Below are positions 4,161 through 43,710 of a DNA stretch of 64,000 nucleotides, piece after piece. The stretch lies in NCBI RefSeq assembly GCF_044324875.1, contig NZ_CP172185.1; one strand, 5' to 3'. The DNA is from Escherichia coli (lineage in GTDB: Bacteria > Pseudomonadota > Gammaproteobacteria > Enterobacterales > Enterobacteriaceae). A program made the translations under genes and the position numbers. A model generated the notes under the pieces. The model was not told where the DNA came from. It ran no database searches and saw nothing but the letters and a program-made list of their open reading frames with translations. The first letter of the stretch is position 1. Each line of letters begins with the position of its first letter.

Positions 4161-5370
<1,210 letters not shown>

Positions 5371-5466
5371 GTTAGACGTTCTTTAAAAATAAGGAAATGT
5401 TTGAATTTAGTTGGTAGATTGTTGATGTGGAATAAATTTGTTTAAAAACAGATATGTATGCTTAGT
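5371..5466 (+). promoter_or_regulatory. CRISPR leader (AT-rich, between cas2 stop and first repeat)
   Basis: About 96 bp AT-rich non-coding stretch directly upstream of repeat 1; leader-array promoter expected here by analogy with E. coli I-E arrays. Confidence 0.6.
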
Positions 5467-5983
5467 GTGTTCCCCGCGCCAGCGGGGATAAACCGCTTTT
5501 GTTTCTGATTTCTACGCCTGTGGGTAAGTGTTCCCCGCGCCAGCGGGGATAAACCGGAGCAACTACTCGCAGCACAACAGGCAGGTAGGTGTTCCCCGCG
5601 CCAGCGGGGATAAACCGTTTTCTCTAATTACAGTGATTTTTCAAAATCCGTGTTCCCCGCGCCAGCGGGGATAAACCGCGATTCAAAAATAAAATGACGA
5701 CGGAGGAGGCGTGTTCCCCGCGCCAGCGGGGATAAACCGCCGTCGAAGTGACCATGCTCTTTCATTGTGATGTGTTCCCCGCGCCAGCGGGGATAAACCG
5801 AACACAGCGTAAAACCGTCGCAGCCATGCCGAGAGTTCCCCGCGCCAGTGGGGATAAACCGATTGGTCGGTTATGCATCCTGCTAACCAGATTGTGTTCC
5901 CCGCACCAGCGGGGATAAACCGTAATATTAGACTAATGTTTTTTTGTTGAGTTCGTGTTCCCCCGCCACTGCGGTAGAACTCC
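5467..5983 (+). CRISPR. Type I-E CRISPR array: 9 repeats of 29 bp (last degenerate), 8 spacers of 32 bp, 61 bp period
   Basis: Repeat GTGTTCCCCGCGCCAGCGGGGATAAACCG begins at 5467, 5528, 5589, 5650, 5711, 5772, 5833, 5894; repeat 7 reads GAGTTCCCCGCGCCAGTGGGGATAAACCG and repeat 8 GTGTTCCCCGCACCAGCGGGGATAAACCG; degenerate terminal repeat at 5955..5983. Confidence 0.97.
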
Positions 5984-24544: not shown

Positions 24545-24889
24545 ATGTCCGGCAAGCGTATCTCTCGTGAAAAACTGACGATTAAAAAAATGATCGATCT
24601 TTATCAAGCGAAATGCCCGCAGGCGTCAGCGGAGCCGGAGCATTATGAGGCGTTGTTTACTTACGCGCAAAAGCGGCTGGATAAATGTGTGTTCGGCGAA
24701 GAGAAACCAGCCTGTAAGCAGTGTCCGGTGCACTGTTACCAGCCTGCAAAGCGTGAAGAGATGAAACAGATTATGCGTTGGGCTGGGCCGCGAATGCTGT
24801 GGCGTCATCCGATCTTAACCGTGCGTCATCTCATCGATGACAAGCGTCCGGTGCCGGAGTTGCCAGAAAAATATCGTCCAAAGAAATAA
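24545..24889 (+). CDS. ygbA: Conserved Cys-rich protein YgbA
   Basis: 114 aa ORF next to mutS; size and position match ygbA as recalled. Confidence 0.7.
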   Translation: MSGKRISREKLTIKKMIDLYQAKCPQASAEPEHYEALFTYAQKRLDKCVFGEEKPACKQCPVHCYQPAKREEMKQIMRWAGPRMLWRHPILTVRHLIDDKRPVPELPEKYRPKK

Positions 24890-24927
24890 ATCTGCCGGAG
24901 AGCCATACTCTCCGGCAAATAAGGCGC

Positions 24928-25356
24928 TTACGCTTTGGTGGCAATCAGGATGGCTGATGCTTTGATCAATGCAATAACGCGCGAGCCAGTGGTGAGTTTC
25001 ATTTCATCCTGACTTTCATTTGTTACCACTGCCACAATTTCAAAACCCGCATCCGTTTTGATATGGACAGTGGCGTTCACTGCTCCTTCGGTGATTGTCG
25101 ACACGCTGCCAGCAAACTGGTTGCGAGCAGAGAATTTCAGTCCACAGTCTTCCGTTGCCAGCGTTACCCACGGGGCTTTAATCAGGGCAATCGCTTCTTT
25201 CCCTTTCGCCAGACCCAGCGCTTGCTGGCTGCTGTGAGTCACAATTGCCACCAGCTTTGCACCACCTGCCAGCGTCAGTTCTACTTCATCATTCACAGCG
25301 CCCATTGCTACTGCGCTAACTGTTCCGGTTAATTGATTTCTTGCTGAAACTGCCAT
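24928..25356 (-). CDS. Molybdate-binding di-TOBE molbindin (Mop/ModG-like)
   Basis: Two tandem ~70 aa TOBE-like halves (ARNQLTGTVS...; ARNQFAGSVS...); start set at ATG 25356 with AGGAGG RBS. Confidence 0.75.
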   Translation of the reverse strand: MAVSARNQLTGTVSAVAMGAVNDEVELTLAGGAKLVAIVTHSSQQALGLAKGKEAIALIKAPWVTLATEDCGLKFSARNQFAGSVSTITEGAVNATVHIKTDAGFEIVAVVTNESQDEMKLTTGSRVIALIKASAILIATKA

Positions 25357-25400
25357 ACTGCCTCCTTTCATTGAATGTTGATCGAGTATAACCACATCTG

Positions 25401-27479
25401 TTAAATCAATGCCGATTTATCAATTCCCAGTCGCTTCATCCGTGACAGCAGAGTCGTGCGTTTCAGCCCCAGACGTTGCGCAGCGCCTTTAGGCCCGGCA
25501 ACCACGCCGTTGGTTTCTTTCAGCACGCGAACAATCAACTGATATTCATCTTCGCCCTCCTGGGCGACAACCGTTGCGGCAGGCGGCGTTTCAGGCTCCG
25601 GTAAAGCAATATCAGGCAATGACAGCTGCAGCACGTTGCCGCGTGTTAGCAATACCGCGCGCTCAATGACGTTTTCCAGTTCGCGTACGTTACCCGGCCA
25701 CTCCATGTTGCTCAAGGTGCGCAGCGTCTCGGCAGGAATGCTGTCGATATTGCGCCCCAGACGACGGGCAATTTTGAAGGTAAAGGCTTTCGCCAGCAGC
25801 GGAATATCTTCCGGACGCTCGCGTAGTGGCGGCAGGTGAATCGGGAATACGTTCAGGCGGTAATAGAGATCGCTACGGAACTCACGGTCGGCGACCATTT
25901 TTTTCAGATCGCGGTTAGTTGCGGCGATTAGACGCACGTCCGTCTGAATGATTTTGTTGCTGCCGAGACGTTCAAACTCCTGTTCCTGTAATACACGCAG
26001 CAACTTCGGCTGTAACTCCAGTGGCATATCGCCCACTTCGTCGAGGAACAGGGAGCTTTTATCCGCCAGTTCAAAACGACCGATACGCTGGGCGCTGGCA
26101 CCGGTAAAAGCCCCACGCTCATGACCAAACAGATCGCTCTCCAGCAATCCGGCAGGCATCGCCGCGCAGTTCATTTTGACCATGCGGCGATTATTACGCC
26201 CACTGAGATTATGGATAGCACGGGCAATCAGCTCTTTACCCGTGCCAGTTTCACCGAGGATCAGCACGGTACTGTCACTTTGCGCCACCATTTCAACTTG
26301 TTTAAGCACGCTGTACATGGCTTCGCTGCGGCCAATAATCTCGCCAAATTCACTATCAACATTGTTGAGCTGCTCGGTCAGGGCGAGGTTTTCATCAACC
26401 AGCCGTTCTTTCAGACGATGGATTTCCTGATAGGCGAGGGCGTTATCGACAGCGATTGCCACACGTTCGGCAATCTGGCGCAGTAAATTCAGATTGGTAG
26501 TGGTAAACACTTTCTCTTCGCATTGCGCCAGTTTCAGCACGCCCAGCATGGTGTCGCCAGACATCAGCGGTAACAGGCACAAGGTTTGAATCTGGTTGCC
26601 CCAGGTGTCGAACAACATGCGTTCATAGGGGGCTAAATCGTCCCGCTCGTGGAGATTAATCAGCAGCATCTCTTTGCTTTTGAACACGCGTTCGGTGAGG
26701 GTTCCGGCTTCATCGACTTCGCTCTGTTCGTGGGCGGGATGCTGTTTATCAAGATAGTGAGTGGAGTAGATGTTGAGTTTGTTTTTACGGTGGCTGCGTA
26801 AGACGATGCTGATATCGTCAATGTCGAAGTAGTAATGGATTTCTTTGGCGACTTCGCTGACCAGTTCGTCCATATCCAGGCGGGAAAGCACCGCGTTGGT
26901 AATGGCAACCAGGATGCGGAAGTTATCGCGCTCCCGGCATAACAACTCATAGTCGACATTATTGACGACGCGGCTCTGGATTTGTTCGGTGACGACAGAA
27001 ACGATCTGCGTAAATGTTTGCAGACGATTGAACTCTTTTTCGCTCCAGGGGCGATCGTCATAACGAATAAATTCACAGCCACCAAAAATATGCCCTTCCG
27101 CCGCCAGTGGCATCAGGCAATAGTGACCAAATTTGGGGTATAGCCCACCTGCGGCCAGCTGCGGCCAGGTTTCACAAAATTCTTCGTAACTGCAATGCAG
27201 CGTATCAGGGCGCGACAAAATGCTGCGTACCGGACCGTGTGCCAGAACAGTTTCGTCTTCATATTTAATGGGGGTGTCTTTTTCACGCGATGCGTAATAA
27301 GACGCACGTTGAGTCTGCGCTTGCCACAACACAATAGCCGCGTTGTCGGCGAGCGCAGAACGCTTTACCAGTTGCGAAAGAGCCTCACACAGCGAGGCCA
27401 GATCGGGCTGCTGCAATAGTGTCCGAGTGATGTCGAACAACCCTTGTTGTCCGAGATCACTCATCGGTGTATATGACAT
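25401..27479 (-). CDS. fhlA: Formate hydrogenlyase transcriptional activator (sigma54 enhancer-binding protein)
   Basis: Start set at MSYTPMSDLGQQGLFDITR...; GAF domains, AAA+ motif [15 protein letters not shown]-terminal HTH. Confidence 0.95.
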   Translation of the reverse strand: MSYTPMSDLGQQGLFDITRTLLQQPDLASLCEALSQLVKRSALADNAAIVLWQAQTQRASYYASREKDTPIKYEDETVLAHGPVRSILSRPDTLHCSYEEFCETWPQLAAGGLYPKFGHYCLMPLAAEGHIFGGCEFIRYDDRPWSEKEFNRLQTFTQIVSVVTEQIQSRVVNNVDYELLCRERDNFRILVAITNAVLSRLDMDELVSEVAKEIHYYFDIDDISIVLRSHRKNKLNIYSTHYLDKQHPAHEQSEVDEAGTLTERVFKSKEMLLINLHERDDLAPYERMLFDTWGNQIQTLCLLPLMSGDTMLGVLKLAQCEEKVFTTTNLNLLRQIAERVAIAVDNALAYQEIHRLKERLVDENLALTEQLNNVDSEFGEIIGRSEAMYSVLKQVEMVAQSDSTVLILGETGTGKELIARAIHNLSGRNNRRMVKMNCAAMPAGLLESDLFGHERGAFTGASAQRIGRFELADKSSLFLDEVGDMPLELQPKLLRVLQEQEFERLGSNKIIQTDVRLIAATNRDLKKMVADREFRSDLYYRLNVFPIHLPPLRERPEDIPLLAKAFTFKIARRLGRNIDSIPAETLRTLSNMEWPGNVRELENVIERAVLLTRGNVLQLSLPDIALPEPETPPAATVVAQEGEDEYQLIVRVLKETNGVVAGPKGAAQRLGLKRTTLLSRMKRLGIDKSALI

Positions 27480-29953: not shown

Positions 29954-30816
29954 CGCTGTGTCTCCAGCCAGTTCAGCCACTGGTCCATCCCTTCGCCGCT
30001 GGTGGCGGAAATAAGGATGATTTCAATTTCTGGATTGACTTCGCGGGCGCAGGCGATGCACTTCTCAACGTCAAAGTTGAGATACGGCAGCAGGTCAACT
30101 TTGTTGAGCAGCATCAGCGAGGCGGCGGCAAACATATGGGGATATTTCAGCGGTTTGTCTTCACCTTCGGTAACGGAAAGCACCGCCACTTTGTGTTTTT
30201 CACCGAGATCGAAGCTCGCCGGGCAAACGAGATTGCCGACGTTTTCGATAAACAAAATACCGTTATCGTCCAGTGGCAGGCGCGGTGCGGCGTCGGCAAT
30301 CATCTGTGCGTCAAGATGGCAGCCTTTACCGGTGTTCACCTGAATCGCTGGTGTGCCGGTAGCGCGAATGCGTGCGGCATCGTTCACGGTTTGCTGGTCG
30401 CCTTCAATAACTGCGCACGGAACGCTGTCTTTCAGGCGCATTAAAGTTTCCGTCAGCAGGGTGGTTTTACCGGAACCAGGGCTGGAAACCAGGTTGAGCA
30501 CCAGTTGCTTGCGGGCAGCAAAGCGCGCGCGGTTGCGTTCAGCCAGACGGTTATTTTTGTCCAGCACGTCAATTTCGACTTCCAGCATCCGACGCTGGCT
30601 CATGCCCGGCGAGTGAGTGCCCGCTTCGCCATGACCGTAATGCAGGTCGCCTTCTTCAGTCTGGCTGGGGGTAAATTCAGGCGCTTTAATGCCGGTGATT
30701 TTCATCTTCGGGCGTGCCGCCGGGGCAAATGGCGCGCTACGAAACGCGGAATGAGGGTTATGTTCATCACCCTCGATATACAGGTTGCCTTCACCGCAAC
30801 CGCATGTTGTACACAT
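29944..30816 (-). CDS. hypB: Hydrogenase nickel incorporation GTPase HypB
   Basis: 290 aa; [11 protein letters not shown]-terminus, His-rich region, P-loop GSGKTT. Confidence 0.95.
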
Positions 30817-30819
30817 CGC

Positions 30820-31170
30820 TCACTCCTGGTCTATTTCTATCCGCCGAATCTGTAAACCGTCGTCTGCCACAATCTGTAGCATGTCACCATGACACTGTGG
30901 ACAGCGGCGGACGCGTTGGGTCAGTAGCGTCACATACTGTTGGCATGTTTCACACCAGCATTCGGCCTCTTGTTCTTCGAGGTGCAGTTTACAACCTTCC
31001 GCCACGCTGCCGCGGCAAACCAGATCAAAACAAAAGGCAAGAGAGCTGGTTTCGACACAAGAAAATGCGCCAATTTTGAGCCAGACCCCAGTTACGCGTT
31101 TTGCGCCGTGTTTTGCGGCCTGCTGTTCGATCAATTCCAGTGCCCGTTGGCAGAGGGTTATTTCGTGCAT
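30820..31170 (-). CDS. hypA: Hydrogenase nickel insertion protein HypA
   Basis: Start set at MHEITLCQRALELIEQ... (116 aa); CxxC...CxxC zinc motif. Confidence 0.93.
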   Translation of the reverse strand: MHEITLCQRALELIEQQAAKHGAKRVTGVWLKIGAFSCVETSSLAFCFDLVCRGSVAEGCKLHLEEQEAECWCETCQQYVTLLTQRVRRCPQCHGDMLQIVADDGLQIRRIEIDQE

Positions 31171-31201
31171 ATCGCCTCCCATTAACTATTGCCAGCTACA
31201 A

Positions 31202-31217
31202 GCAATAATTGTGCCAG
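31202..31217 (-). promoter_or_regulatory. Candidate sigma54 (-24/-12) promoter for the hyp operon
   Basis: Reverse complement reads CTGGCACAATTATTGC (TGGCAC-N5-TTGC), a match to the sigma54 consensus, about 30 bp upstream of the hypA start. Confidence 0.6.
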
Positions 31218-31240
31218 TGTTGATTATCCCTGCGGTGAAT

Positions 31241-31290
31241 AATGTCGATGATGTCGAAATGACACGTCGACACGGCGACGAAATTCATCT
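31241..31290. promoter_or_regulatory. Candidate FhlA upstream activating sequences in the hyp-hyc divergent region
   Basis: Inverted and direct repeats of TGTCGA/TCGACA (atgtcgatgatgtcgaaatgacacgtcgacacggcgacgaaattcat) between two sigma54-type promoters. Confidence 0.35.
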
Positions 31291-31328
31291 TTAGCTTAAA
31301 AATCGCTTTAATAACAACAAATTAAAAG

Positions 31329-31346
31329 TTGGCACAGAAAATGCTT
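31329..31346 (+). promoter_or_regulatory. Candidate sigma54 (-24/-12) promoter for the hyc operon
   Basis: TTGGCACAGAAAATGCTT with GG and GC separated by 10 nt, about 38 bp upstream of the hycA ATG. Confidence 0.55.
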
Positions 31347-31381
31347 AAAGCTGGCATCTCTGTTAAACGGGTAACCTGACA

Positions 31382-31843
31382 ATGACTATTTGGGAAATAA
31401 GCGAGAAAGCCGATTACATCGCACAGCGGCATCGTCGCCTACAGGACCAGTGGCACATCTACTGCAATTCGCTGGTTCAGGGGATCACGTTATCGAAAGC
31501 GCGCCTGCATCACGCCATGAGCTGCGCGCCGGACAAAGAACTCTGTTTCGTCCTTTTTGAACATTTTCGTATTTACGTCACCCTGGCGGATGGCTTTAAC
31601 AGCCACACCATCGAGTATTACGTCGAAACAAAAGATGGTGAAGACAAACAGCGGATTGCGCAGGCGCAACTGAGCATTGACGGCATGATTGATGGCAAGG
31701 TCAACATCCGCGATCGCGAACAGGTTCTGGAACACTATCTCGAAAAAATCGCTGGCGTTTACGACAGCTTATACACCGCCATTGAAAACAATGTGCCGGT
31801 GAATTTAAGCCAACTGGTAAAGGGACAAAGCCCGGCAGCATGA
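31382..31843 (+). CDS. hycA: Formate hydrogenlyase regulatory protein HycA
   Basis: 153 aa, MTIWEISEKADYIAQRHRRLQDQWHIY... Confidence 0.95.
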   Translation: MTIWEISEKADYIAQRHRRLQDQWHIYCNSLVQGITLSKARLHHAMSCAPDKELCFVLFEHFRIYVTLADGFNSHTIEYYVETKDGEDKQRIAQAQLSIDGMIDGKVNIRDREQVLEHYLEKIAGVYDSLYTAIENNVPVNLSQLVKGQSPAA

Positions 31844-31967
31844 GCTGAGGCTTTGCCCGTTTTGCAGGCGTTACGCCTGTTTGGGGATGGGCGTGTCGAT
31901 GAGTGTCGAAAATGACATTTCATCGGCATGTTTTCGTCAAAAATGACAATCACCTGAGGAATGCCTG

Positions 31968-32579
31968 GTGAATCGTTTTGTAATTGCTGACTCCACGCTC
32001 TGTATCGGCTGCCACACCTGTGAGGCCGCCTGTTCAGAGACGCATCGCCAGCACGGCCTGCAATCAATGCCGCGCCTGCGAGTGATGCTCAATGAAAAAG
32101 AATCTGCGCCGCAGCTCTGTCACCACTGTGAAGATGCGCCCTGTGCGGTGGTTTGCCCGGTTAACGCCATCACCCGCATTGATGGGGCCGTGCAGTTGAA
32201 TGAAAGTCTGTGCGTAAGCTGCAAACTGTGCGGCATCGCCTGCCCGTTTGGCGCAATTGAATTTTCCGGCAGCCGTCCGCTGGATATTCCGGCAAACGCC
32301 AATACCCCGAAAGCGCCACCGGCACCGCCTGCTCCGGCGCGTGTCAGCACATTGCTTGACTGGGTGCCAGGTATTCGCGCGATTGCCGTCAAATGTGACC
32401 TTTGTAGTTTTGATGAACAAGGTCCGGCCTGCGTGCGGATGTGCCCGACTAAAGCTCTGCATCTGGTGGATAACACCGATATCGCCCGCGTCAGCAAACG
32501 TAAGCGTGAGCTGACTTTTAACACGGACTTTGGCGATCTCACCTTGTTTCAGCAGGCTCAAAGTGGAGAGGCTAAATGA
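31968..32579 (+). CDS. hycB: Formate hydrogenlyase Fe-S subunit HycB
   Basis: 203 aa with multiple CxxCxxCxxxCP ferredoxin motifs. Confidence 0.95.
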   Translation: MNRFVIADSTLCIGCHTCEAACSETHRQHGLQSMPRLRVMLNEKESAPQLCHHCEDAPCAVVCPVNAITRIDGAVQLNESLCVSCKLCGIACPFGAIEFSGSRPLDIPANANTPKAPPAPPAPARVSTLLDWVPGIRAIAVKCDLCSFDEQGPACVRMCPTKALHLVDNTDIARVSKRKRELTFNTDFGDLTLFQQAQSGEAK

Positions 32580-43562: not shown

Positions 43563-43575
43563 ACATTGTCATCAC

Positions 43576-43610
43576 ATGTCATCGTCACTAGTGTCGATGA
43601 CATCGTTTTT
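43576..43610 (+). terminator. Intrinsic terminator after ascG
   Basis: 28 bp near-perfect palindrome atgtcatcgtcactagtgtcgatgacat followed by TTTTT. Confidence 0.6.
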
Positions 43611-43710
43611 CCTGCATTGCAGAATTTAATTTCTTTAAATAACAGTAAATTAAAAACTGGCATGATTTGTGAATGTATCGGCGCATTAACTGTCATTGCT
43701 GGAGAATTTG

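Follow-up and report, generated by a model that had tools for sequence, protein, structure and literature searches.

The divergent hypA-hycA control region of the formate regulon in a strain of Escherichia coli: sigma-54 promoters, FhlA-type arrays and their spacing across the Enterobacteriaceae

What directs transcription away from the short spacer that separates the hydrogenase-maturation (hyp) operon from the divergent hydrogenase-3 (hyc) operon, and are the elements concerned intact in the strain of Escherichia coli considered here? An earlier note on this DNA had proposed a sigma-54 promoter on each strand, with repeats between them to which the activator FhlA would bind. We examined this proposal over a 64-kb stretch of the genome (the whole stretch analysed, hereafter the window), against the corresponding region of K-12 and across related species. 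Our analysis indicates that the hypA-hycA spacer (31171-31381) is very probably the classical, already known region from which divergent transcription in the E. coli formate regulon is controlled, and that the control region between the two operons is intact and ordinary in this strain.

The locus and its two sigma-54 promoters

The window runs from the cas/cys region to the argQ tRNA cluster and is colinear with K-12 over this length; its minus strand carries hypA, hypB, hypC, hypD, hypE and fhlA, in this order, and its plus strand hycA, hycB (from 31968) and hycC onward (Table 1). The spacer is 211 bp long and shares 208 of its 211 bases with K-12, the hypA-hycA-hycB stretch as a whole is 99% identical to its K-12 counterpart, and the 601 bp around the feature are found in 5425 of 5426 complete E. 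coli genomes. The gene for the activator, fhlA, is likewise intact and colinear with K-12 fhlA (97.9% identity). The hypA reading frame opens with the ATG at 31170, as in K-12, the encoded protein starting with MHE[ILVM] in all 80 related loci (see below), and it is preceded by a ribosome-binding site with GGAGG at 31175-31179, the positions 31174-31179 being nearly invariant in 81 spacers. The left edge of the spacer, which the earlier note had set at 31183, is 12 bp off because it was taken from an in-frame ATG at 31182, upstream of the true start. A scan of 30700-32100 for sigma-70 promoters and terminators returned none exceeding the shuffle expectation.

Table 1. Coordinates of the features discussed in the text (positions in the window)
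Feature	Position	Strand	Remarks
fhlA, formate-sensing sigma-54 activator	25401..27479	-	last hyp-operon gene; ORF uninterrupted (MSYTPMSDLG...)
hypA CDS	30820..31170	-	116 aa, MHEITL start; ORF list and K-12 annotation (351-bp hypA)
hypA ribosome-binding site	31175..31180	-	GGGAGG, read from the sequence
Predicted hyp transcription start	31190	-	from motif centre 31209 by the start-site rule; 20-nt leader
hyp sigma-54 promoter CTGGCACAATTATTGCT	31201..31217	-	-24 GG 31214-31215, -12 GC 31202-31203
Putative FhlA upstream activating sequence	31243..31272		TGTCGA TGA TGTCGA AA TGACA CG TCGACA
IHF-like core TAACAACAAATTA	31312..31324	+	in A/T-rich tract ~31295-31328
hyc sigma-54 promoter TTGGCACAGAAAATGCT	31329..31345	+	-24 GG 31331-31332, -12 GC 31343-31344
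Predicted hyc transcription start and 26-nt hycA leader	31356..31381	+	motif centre 31337 + 19
hycA, anti-activator of FhlA	31382..31843	+	153 aa; ORF and K-12/RefSeq annotation
Putative second FhlA enhancer TGTCGATGAGTGTCGAAAATGACA ... TTTTCGTCAAAAATGACA	31894..31948		hycA-hycB spacer
hydN-hypF promoter module	43566-43684		array 43566-43606, core 43640-43652, motif CTGGCATGATTTGTGAA 43657-43673, predicted start 43684

The two sigma-54 consensus matches quoted in the earlier note are both present exactly as written: that of hyp, CTGGCACAATTATTGC, reads from 31217 to 31202 on the minus strand and matches the core TGGCAC-N5-TTGC without mismatch, and that of hyc, TTGGCACAGAAAATGC, lies at 31329-31344 on the plus strand and shows a single mismatch in the core (ATGC for TTGC). 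In both, the GG and the GC are exactly 10 bp apart within TGGCAC-N5-TTGCW. The loose consensus TGGCAC-N5-TTGC with one mismatch shows no enrichment in the window (7 matches vs 7.6 expected), and a search with it tells little when taken alone. The position-weight-matrix scan that had been suggested as a check ranks the hyp site first and the hyc site third among the ~128,000 positions of the whole 64-kb window: with an RpoN matrix derived from 186 promoters (Table 2 of PMC7658346, the source also of an FhlA matrix from 13 sites), the hyp site scores 19.05 bits, where the maximum is 21.05, and the hyc site 15.58 bits, the known norV promoter coming second.

Occupancy by sigma-54 and promoter status have been shown by others on the K-12 sequence. 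In the sigma-54 ChIP-seq of K-12, the hypA site OS28 (CTGGCACAATTATTGCT) has an occupancy of 201 and a matrix score of 14.09, each the highest in the table, and the hycA site OS27 (TTGGCACAAAAAATGCT) an occupancy of 91; according to the same source, both are flagged as experimentally confirmed promoters in EcoCyc and are occupied by sigma-54 even in aerobic minimal medium (PMC4591121). The hyp motif of the present strain is identical to OS28, and its hyc motif differs from OS27 only at spacer base 31337. Further, the Salmonella homologues are enriched 31x and 71x in sigma-54 ChIP-chip, their expression depending on sigma-54 by 26x and 5.6x (PMC3844500), and genomic SELEX with the RpoN holoenzyme in vitro gives a peak in the hycA/hypA spacer (PMC8743547). 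The two motifs are documented in the literature as the promoters from which sigma-54 serves hypABCDE-fhlA and hycABCDEFGHI.

The rule of PMC4591121, which places the start site 19 bp downstream of the motif centre, yields predicted leaders of 20 nt for hyp and 26 nt for hyc, the very distances (20 and 26) printed in that source; moreover, a conserved block, TCTCNNTTAANCGGGTAACCTGAC, starts at the predicted hyc start (31356) and continues to the hycA ATG. As far as the accessible record goes, transcription would begin about 12 bp downstream of each -12 element, as the earlier note had expected, the predicted starts reproducing the published distances (PMC4591121).

Several other motifs in the window came to our attention alongside these promoters. 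A second (C)TGGCA occurs exactly 22 bp downstream of each -24 element and ends at the predicted start (31190-31195 after 31212-31217, and 31352-31356 after 31330-31334); it is seen in Escherichia only (4 and 6 of the 81 spacers, respectively) and, being probably a coincidence, was discarded as a feature. The sigma-54-like motif TGGCACATCTACTGCA inside hycA (31451-31466, plus strand; 15.05 bits, little below the hyc promoter) was likewise rejected: it overlaps conserved Trp...Tyr-Cys codons, whose constraint accounts for it, and the GC of its -12 element is lost (TGT) in many species. A ChIP-seq peak at this motif, 114 bp from the hyc promoter, would not be resolvable from that of the promoter. 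The norV sigma-54 promoter TGGCACGCAATCTGCA (49326-49341, minus strand) matches the K-12 ChIP-seq site OS25 (PMC4591121).

The window departs from K-12 elsewhere. Relative to K-12, 513 bp (24887-25399) are added between the fhlA stop and the ygbA side, wherein a gene on the minus strand (about 24928-25356), immediately downstream of fhlA, codes for a 142-aa molbindin-type protein with two TOBE domains. This segment, annotated as encoding a "TOBE domain-containing protein", is present in 1892 of 5426 complete E. coli genomes (35%) and absent from K-12; it is a common presence/absence polymorphism with no bearing on the hyp/hyc spacer. The earlier note had described this molbindin insertion as nearby; it is situated 5.8 kb from the spacer, past the fhlA stop codon, and on these grounds we reject it as a threat to the regulatory architecture. 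The gene adjoins the activator of a molybdenum-dependent pathway and might merit a separate look. Two known variable regions also differ: in the rpoS-mutS interval (17110-21695) the ygbI-N block is replaced, pphB is 86% identical and ~1 kb is added before mutS, and the cas1/cas2 region (4177-5499) is 74% identical to K-12.

Two arrays of FhlA-type repeats and an IHF-like core

Between the two promoters, the plus strand has TGTCGA at 31243 and again at 31252, and TCGACA at 31267-31272 completes the inverted pairs. TGTCGA is found 51 times in the window, with a triple within 30 bp being unique to 31243-31272; when the 51 occurrences were placed at random, any such triple arose in 1.4% of trials. 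The FhlA matrix scores 31243-31256 at 16.13 bits, the second-best match in the window; the matrix probably includes these very sites, the high scores are in part circular, and they show identity with characterised sites, not independent support. Of the published FhlA consensus CATTTCGTACGAAATG, which PMC4987338 credits to Leonhartsberger 2000, the CGAAATG half is present at 31255-31261. The array is identical to that of K-12, and the block 31242-31270 is strongly conserved in the 81 aligned spacers. The match to the matrix and to the consensus, together with this conservation, supports the reading of the TGTCGA/TCGACA repeats as an FhlA site that the earlier note had offered. That they should also lie at the expected upstream-activating position holds for hyc, whose predicted start has the array centred at -98 (as against -97 at hydN), and not for hyp, where the centre is at -67, which is not canonical. 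A further TGTCGA pair, at 17822/17842, was dismissed as an FhlA site: it is coding-type sequence without FhlA-matrix support.

We also recovered a second array with internal dyad repeats in the hycA-hycB spacer. It contains the best FhlA-matrix match of the window (31904-31917; 17.49 of 17.66 bits) and another of 12.2 bits (31935-31948), the two best matches of the window falling one in each array. This array is identical to its K-12 counterpart and nearly invariant in 77 distinct spacers, more strictly so than the intergenic one; in Enterobacter and Klebsiella the hycA-hycB spacer measures 67-83 bp and retains little but the FhlA array and the hycB ribosome site. There is no sigma-54 motif after it, and it must therefore act at a distance; the predicted hyp start is 704-758 bp away, with the array on its upstream side. 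We take the hycA-hycB array to be the probable enhancer of the hyp promoter and the intergenic array to be that of hyc; work by Lutz et al. 1990 and Schlensog et al. 1994 is reported to have assigned them in this way, with the hycA-hycB enhancer driving hyp (mainly) and the intergenic one driving hyc. A full-text literature search that included the site sequences and the K-12 start coordinates, the primary footprinting papers being outside its reach, turned up no statement of footprint coordinates or of a hyp enhancer assignment.

Just past the hycA stop, at 31858-31886, the same spacer can fold into a stem-loop with CAGGCGT/ACGCCTG in a longer helix (-24.7 kcal/mol; z-score -2.1). This segment is confined to Escherichia, Salmonella and Citrobacter, the other genera having a much shorter hycA-hycB spacer.

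The third element is a candidate IHF-like core upstream of the hyc promoter, with one mismatch (31314) to WATCAANNNNTTR and a position of -44 to -32 relative to the predicted hyc start. Across the window as a whole this pattern shows no enrichment (52 matches vs 46 expected), so the case for the core consists of its fixed position and its conservation: among the 81 spacers, the best core stands 17-19 bp ahead of the hyc TGGCA and fits WATCAANNNNTTR perfectly in 27 and with one mismatch in another 29, i.e., 56 of the 81 hold it at this distance with 0-1 mismatch. The architecture drawn in the earlier note stands with respect to the elements that it named, and is incomplete in leaving out this core and the second FhlA enhancer.

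Conservation, spacing and the choice of enhancer

A HycA-based scan with one genome per species retrieved 80 loci from the Enterobacteriaceae (Escherichia, Salmonella, Citrobacter, Enterobacter, Klebsiella, Raoultella, Kluyvera, Kosakonia and others), and 81 distinct spacers were aligned. The genes hypA and hycA are divergent in all 80 species, with a spacer of 188-223 bp. Its conserved blocks fall exactly on the hypA ribosome site, the two promoters, the enhancer, the IHF-like core and the leader of hycA, and the sequence outside them varies freely. At both promoters TGGCA and TGC are invariant and the N5 bases variable in the 81 distinct spacers: hyp keeps TGGCA and TTGC unchanged across genera, and hyc a conserved TGGCA(C/T)-N5-NTGCTT. 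The distances between these blocks take on a few discrete values across genera: 127-131, 117-118 or 107 bp from promoter to promoter; 48, 59-62, 70-71 or 84 bp from the enhancer to the hyc -24 element; and 45, 57-59 or 69-70 bp from the enhancer to the hyp -12 element. The changes come in steps of ~10-12 bp, that is, whole helical turns, a pattern that is suggestive only, as few independent indel events underlie it. This cross-genus footprint and the helical-turn spacing are the only mildly new material in our analysis.

From established knowledge of bacterial enhancer-binding proteins and of the formate regulon, the following mechanism can be proposed. The sigma-54 RNA polymerase would wait in closed complexes at two back-to-back -24/-12 promoters, the leftward one serving hypABCDE-fhlA (predicted start 31190) and the rightward one hycABCDEFGHI (predicted start 31356), and the opening of either would require the AAA+ activator FhlA. 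Bound to the TGTCGA/TGACA array at 31243-31272 and with its ATPase stimulated by formate, FhlA would contact the polymerase by DNA looping, whereupon its hydrolysis of ATP would remodel the closed complex, with an IHF bend probably helping at hyc. For hyc, the array at -98 and the IHF-like bend site at -44 to -32 would constitute a standard enhancer-bend-promoter module, which appears to be repeated at hydN; for hyp, the second array (31894-31948), ~700-760 bp upstream of the hyp start, would be the most likely enhancer. The first hyc gene, hycA, codes for the FhlA anti-activator and fhlA itself ends the hyp operon; the region would thereby govern both its own activator and the latter's antagonist, and be the point where a positive and a negative feedback loop meet.

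In our assessment the hycA-hycB array most likely supplies the hyp promoter, and the geometry of arrays and bend site agrees with the intergenic array serving hyc and the distal one serving hyp; given the footprint and the spacing, there is a small probability of the intergenic enhancer acting on hyp as well. The fuller version of the latter idea, in which the intergenic array, as the earlier note implied, activates both promoters and the hycA-hycB array is auxiliary or serves hyc from downstream, we regard as unlikely. It could draw on the distance from the enhancer to hyp, which is also kept to whole helical turns across genera, and on the divergent zraP/zraSR sigma-54 promoters, which have a single activator site in common and a spacer of comparable length. 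Against this, no more than 67 bp separate the array centre from the hyp start, and the 25 bp in between lack any bend element, be it IHF-like or A/T-rich; hyc and hydN both have an array at -98/-97 plus a bend site; an independent and more conserved FhlA array lies 700 bp upstream of hyp without an adjacent promoter of its own; and the deletion and footprint literature reportedly gives hyp to the distal array. A more specific claim, that selection holds both promoters and the enhancer in helical register, such that one FhlA oligomer could fire either closed complex, strikes us as distinctly improbable. If true, the region would act as a bidirectional switch in which the distal hycA-hycB array tips the balance in favour of hyp, and the textbook picture of one enhancer per promoter at the hyp/hyc locus would need revision.

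Two other explanations concern the identity and the reality of the motifs themselves. The repeats might bind a regulator other than FhlA, for instance ModE, reported as a secondary activator of hyc and as necessary for maximal hyc and fdhF expression (PMC3149613, PMC2636881), or might be structural DNA without an activator role; we hold this to be very unlikely, given that the repeats fit the FhlA matrix and consensus and that repeats of their family are also present in the hycA-hycB spacer and ahead of hydN, the other two FhlA-dependent sites of the window. The least probable reading, with a negligible chance of being correct, is that these are functionless chance matches to a short consensus in an A/T-rich spacer. 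The unenriched loose sigma-54 pattern (7 vs 7.6 expected) and the 51 occurrences of TGTCGA in the window are what one would cite in its favour; set against them are the ranks 1 and 3 with the RpoN matrix, the sole TGTCGA triple cluster of the window, the occupancy of the K-12 counterparts by sigma-54 in vivo (PMC4591121) and the fact that 80 species conserve these sites base by base amid freely varying spacer sequence. The conservation and the ChIP-seq data refute it.

Few sigma-54 control regions have been characterised as thoroughly as this one, which is essentially unchanged here and has little discovery value. Its practical value is that of a calibration point, the call of the hyp/hyc region from sequence only having proved correct. 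The base-resolution footprint over 80 species, which covers the promoters, the FhlA arrays, the IHF-like core and the leader, might also serve as a guide for formate-inducible expression cassettes.

Comparison with known systems

The closest comparison is the K-12 hyc/hyp region, which is the same locus, and whose divergent promoters and FhlA upstream activating sequence were reportedly described by Lutz et al. 1990, Schlensog et al. 1994 and Hopper et al. 1994. Its hyp promoter, enhancer and hycA-hycB array are all identical to those of the present strain. The differences amount to three spacer substitutions, none of them at a consensus or conserved position, in keeping with the claim of the earlier note that the regulatory architecture is intact: 31305 (G; T in K-12) falls in the unconserved A/T tract, 31318 (C; T in K-12) at one of the unspecified bases (N) of the IHF-like core, and 31337 (G; A in K-12) in the spacer between the hyc -24 and -12 elements, where G is also seen in E. 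albertii and E. whittamii.

Within the window, the hydN-hypF promoter resembles that of hyc in having a TGTC/TGAC dyad array at -97 and an IHF-like core, TAACAGTAAATTA, 18 bp before its TGGCAT; its sigma-54 motif is the K-12 ChIP-seq site OS26 (PMC4591121). Unlike the hyp/hyc region, it is unidirectional, with no divergent partner, and has a weaker -12 element (GTGAA; 11.0 bits). In Salmonella Typhimurium, the hycA and hypA promoters occupy homologous positions, are bound by sigma-54 and show sigma-54-dependent expression (PMC3844500). The S. enterica spacer of the aligned set keeps all the conserved blocks, and differs in having TGGCAT for TGGCAC at both -24 elements and TGACGA variants of the repeat units.

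A parallel outside the formate regulon is provided by zraP/zraSR, where back-to-back sigma-54 promoters ~130-150 bp apart likewise have activator sites between them, and where, according to what Leonhartsberger et al. 2001 are said to have described, the divergent promoters share one ZraR enhancer. This system differs from hyp/hyc in its activator and in that one enhancer would serve both of its promoters, whereas hyp probably has a second, distal enhancer. The motif centres are 154 bp apart at zraP/zraSR (PMC4591121 positions), as against 128 bp at hyp/hyc.
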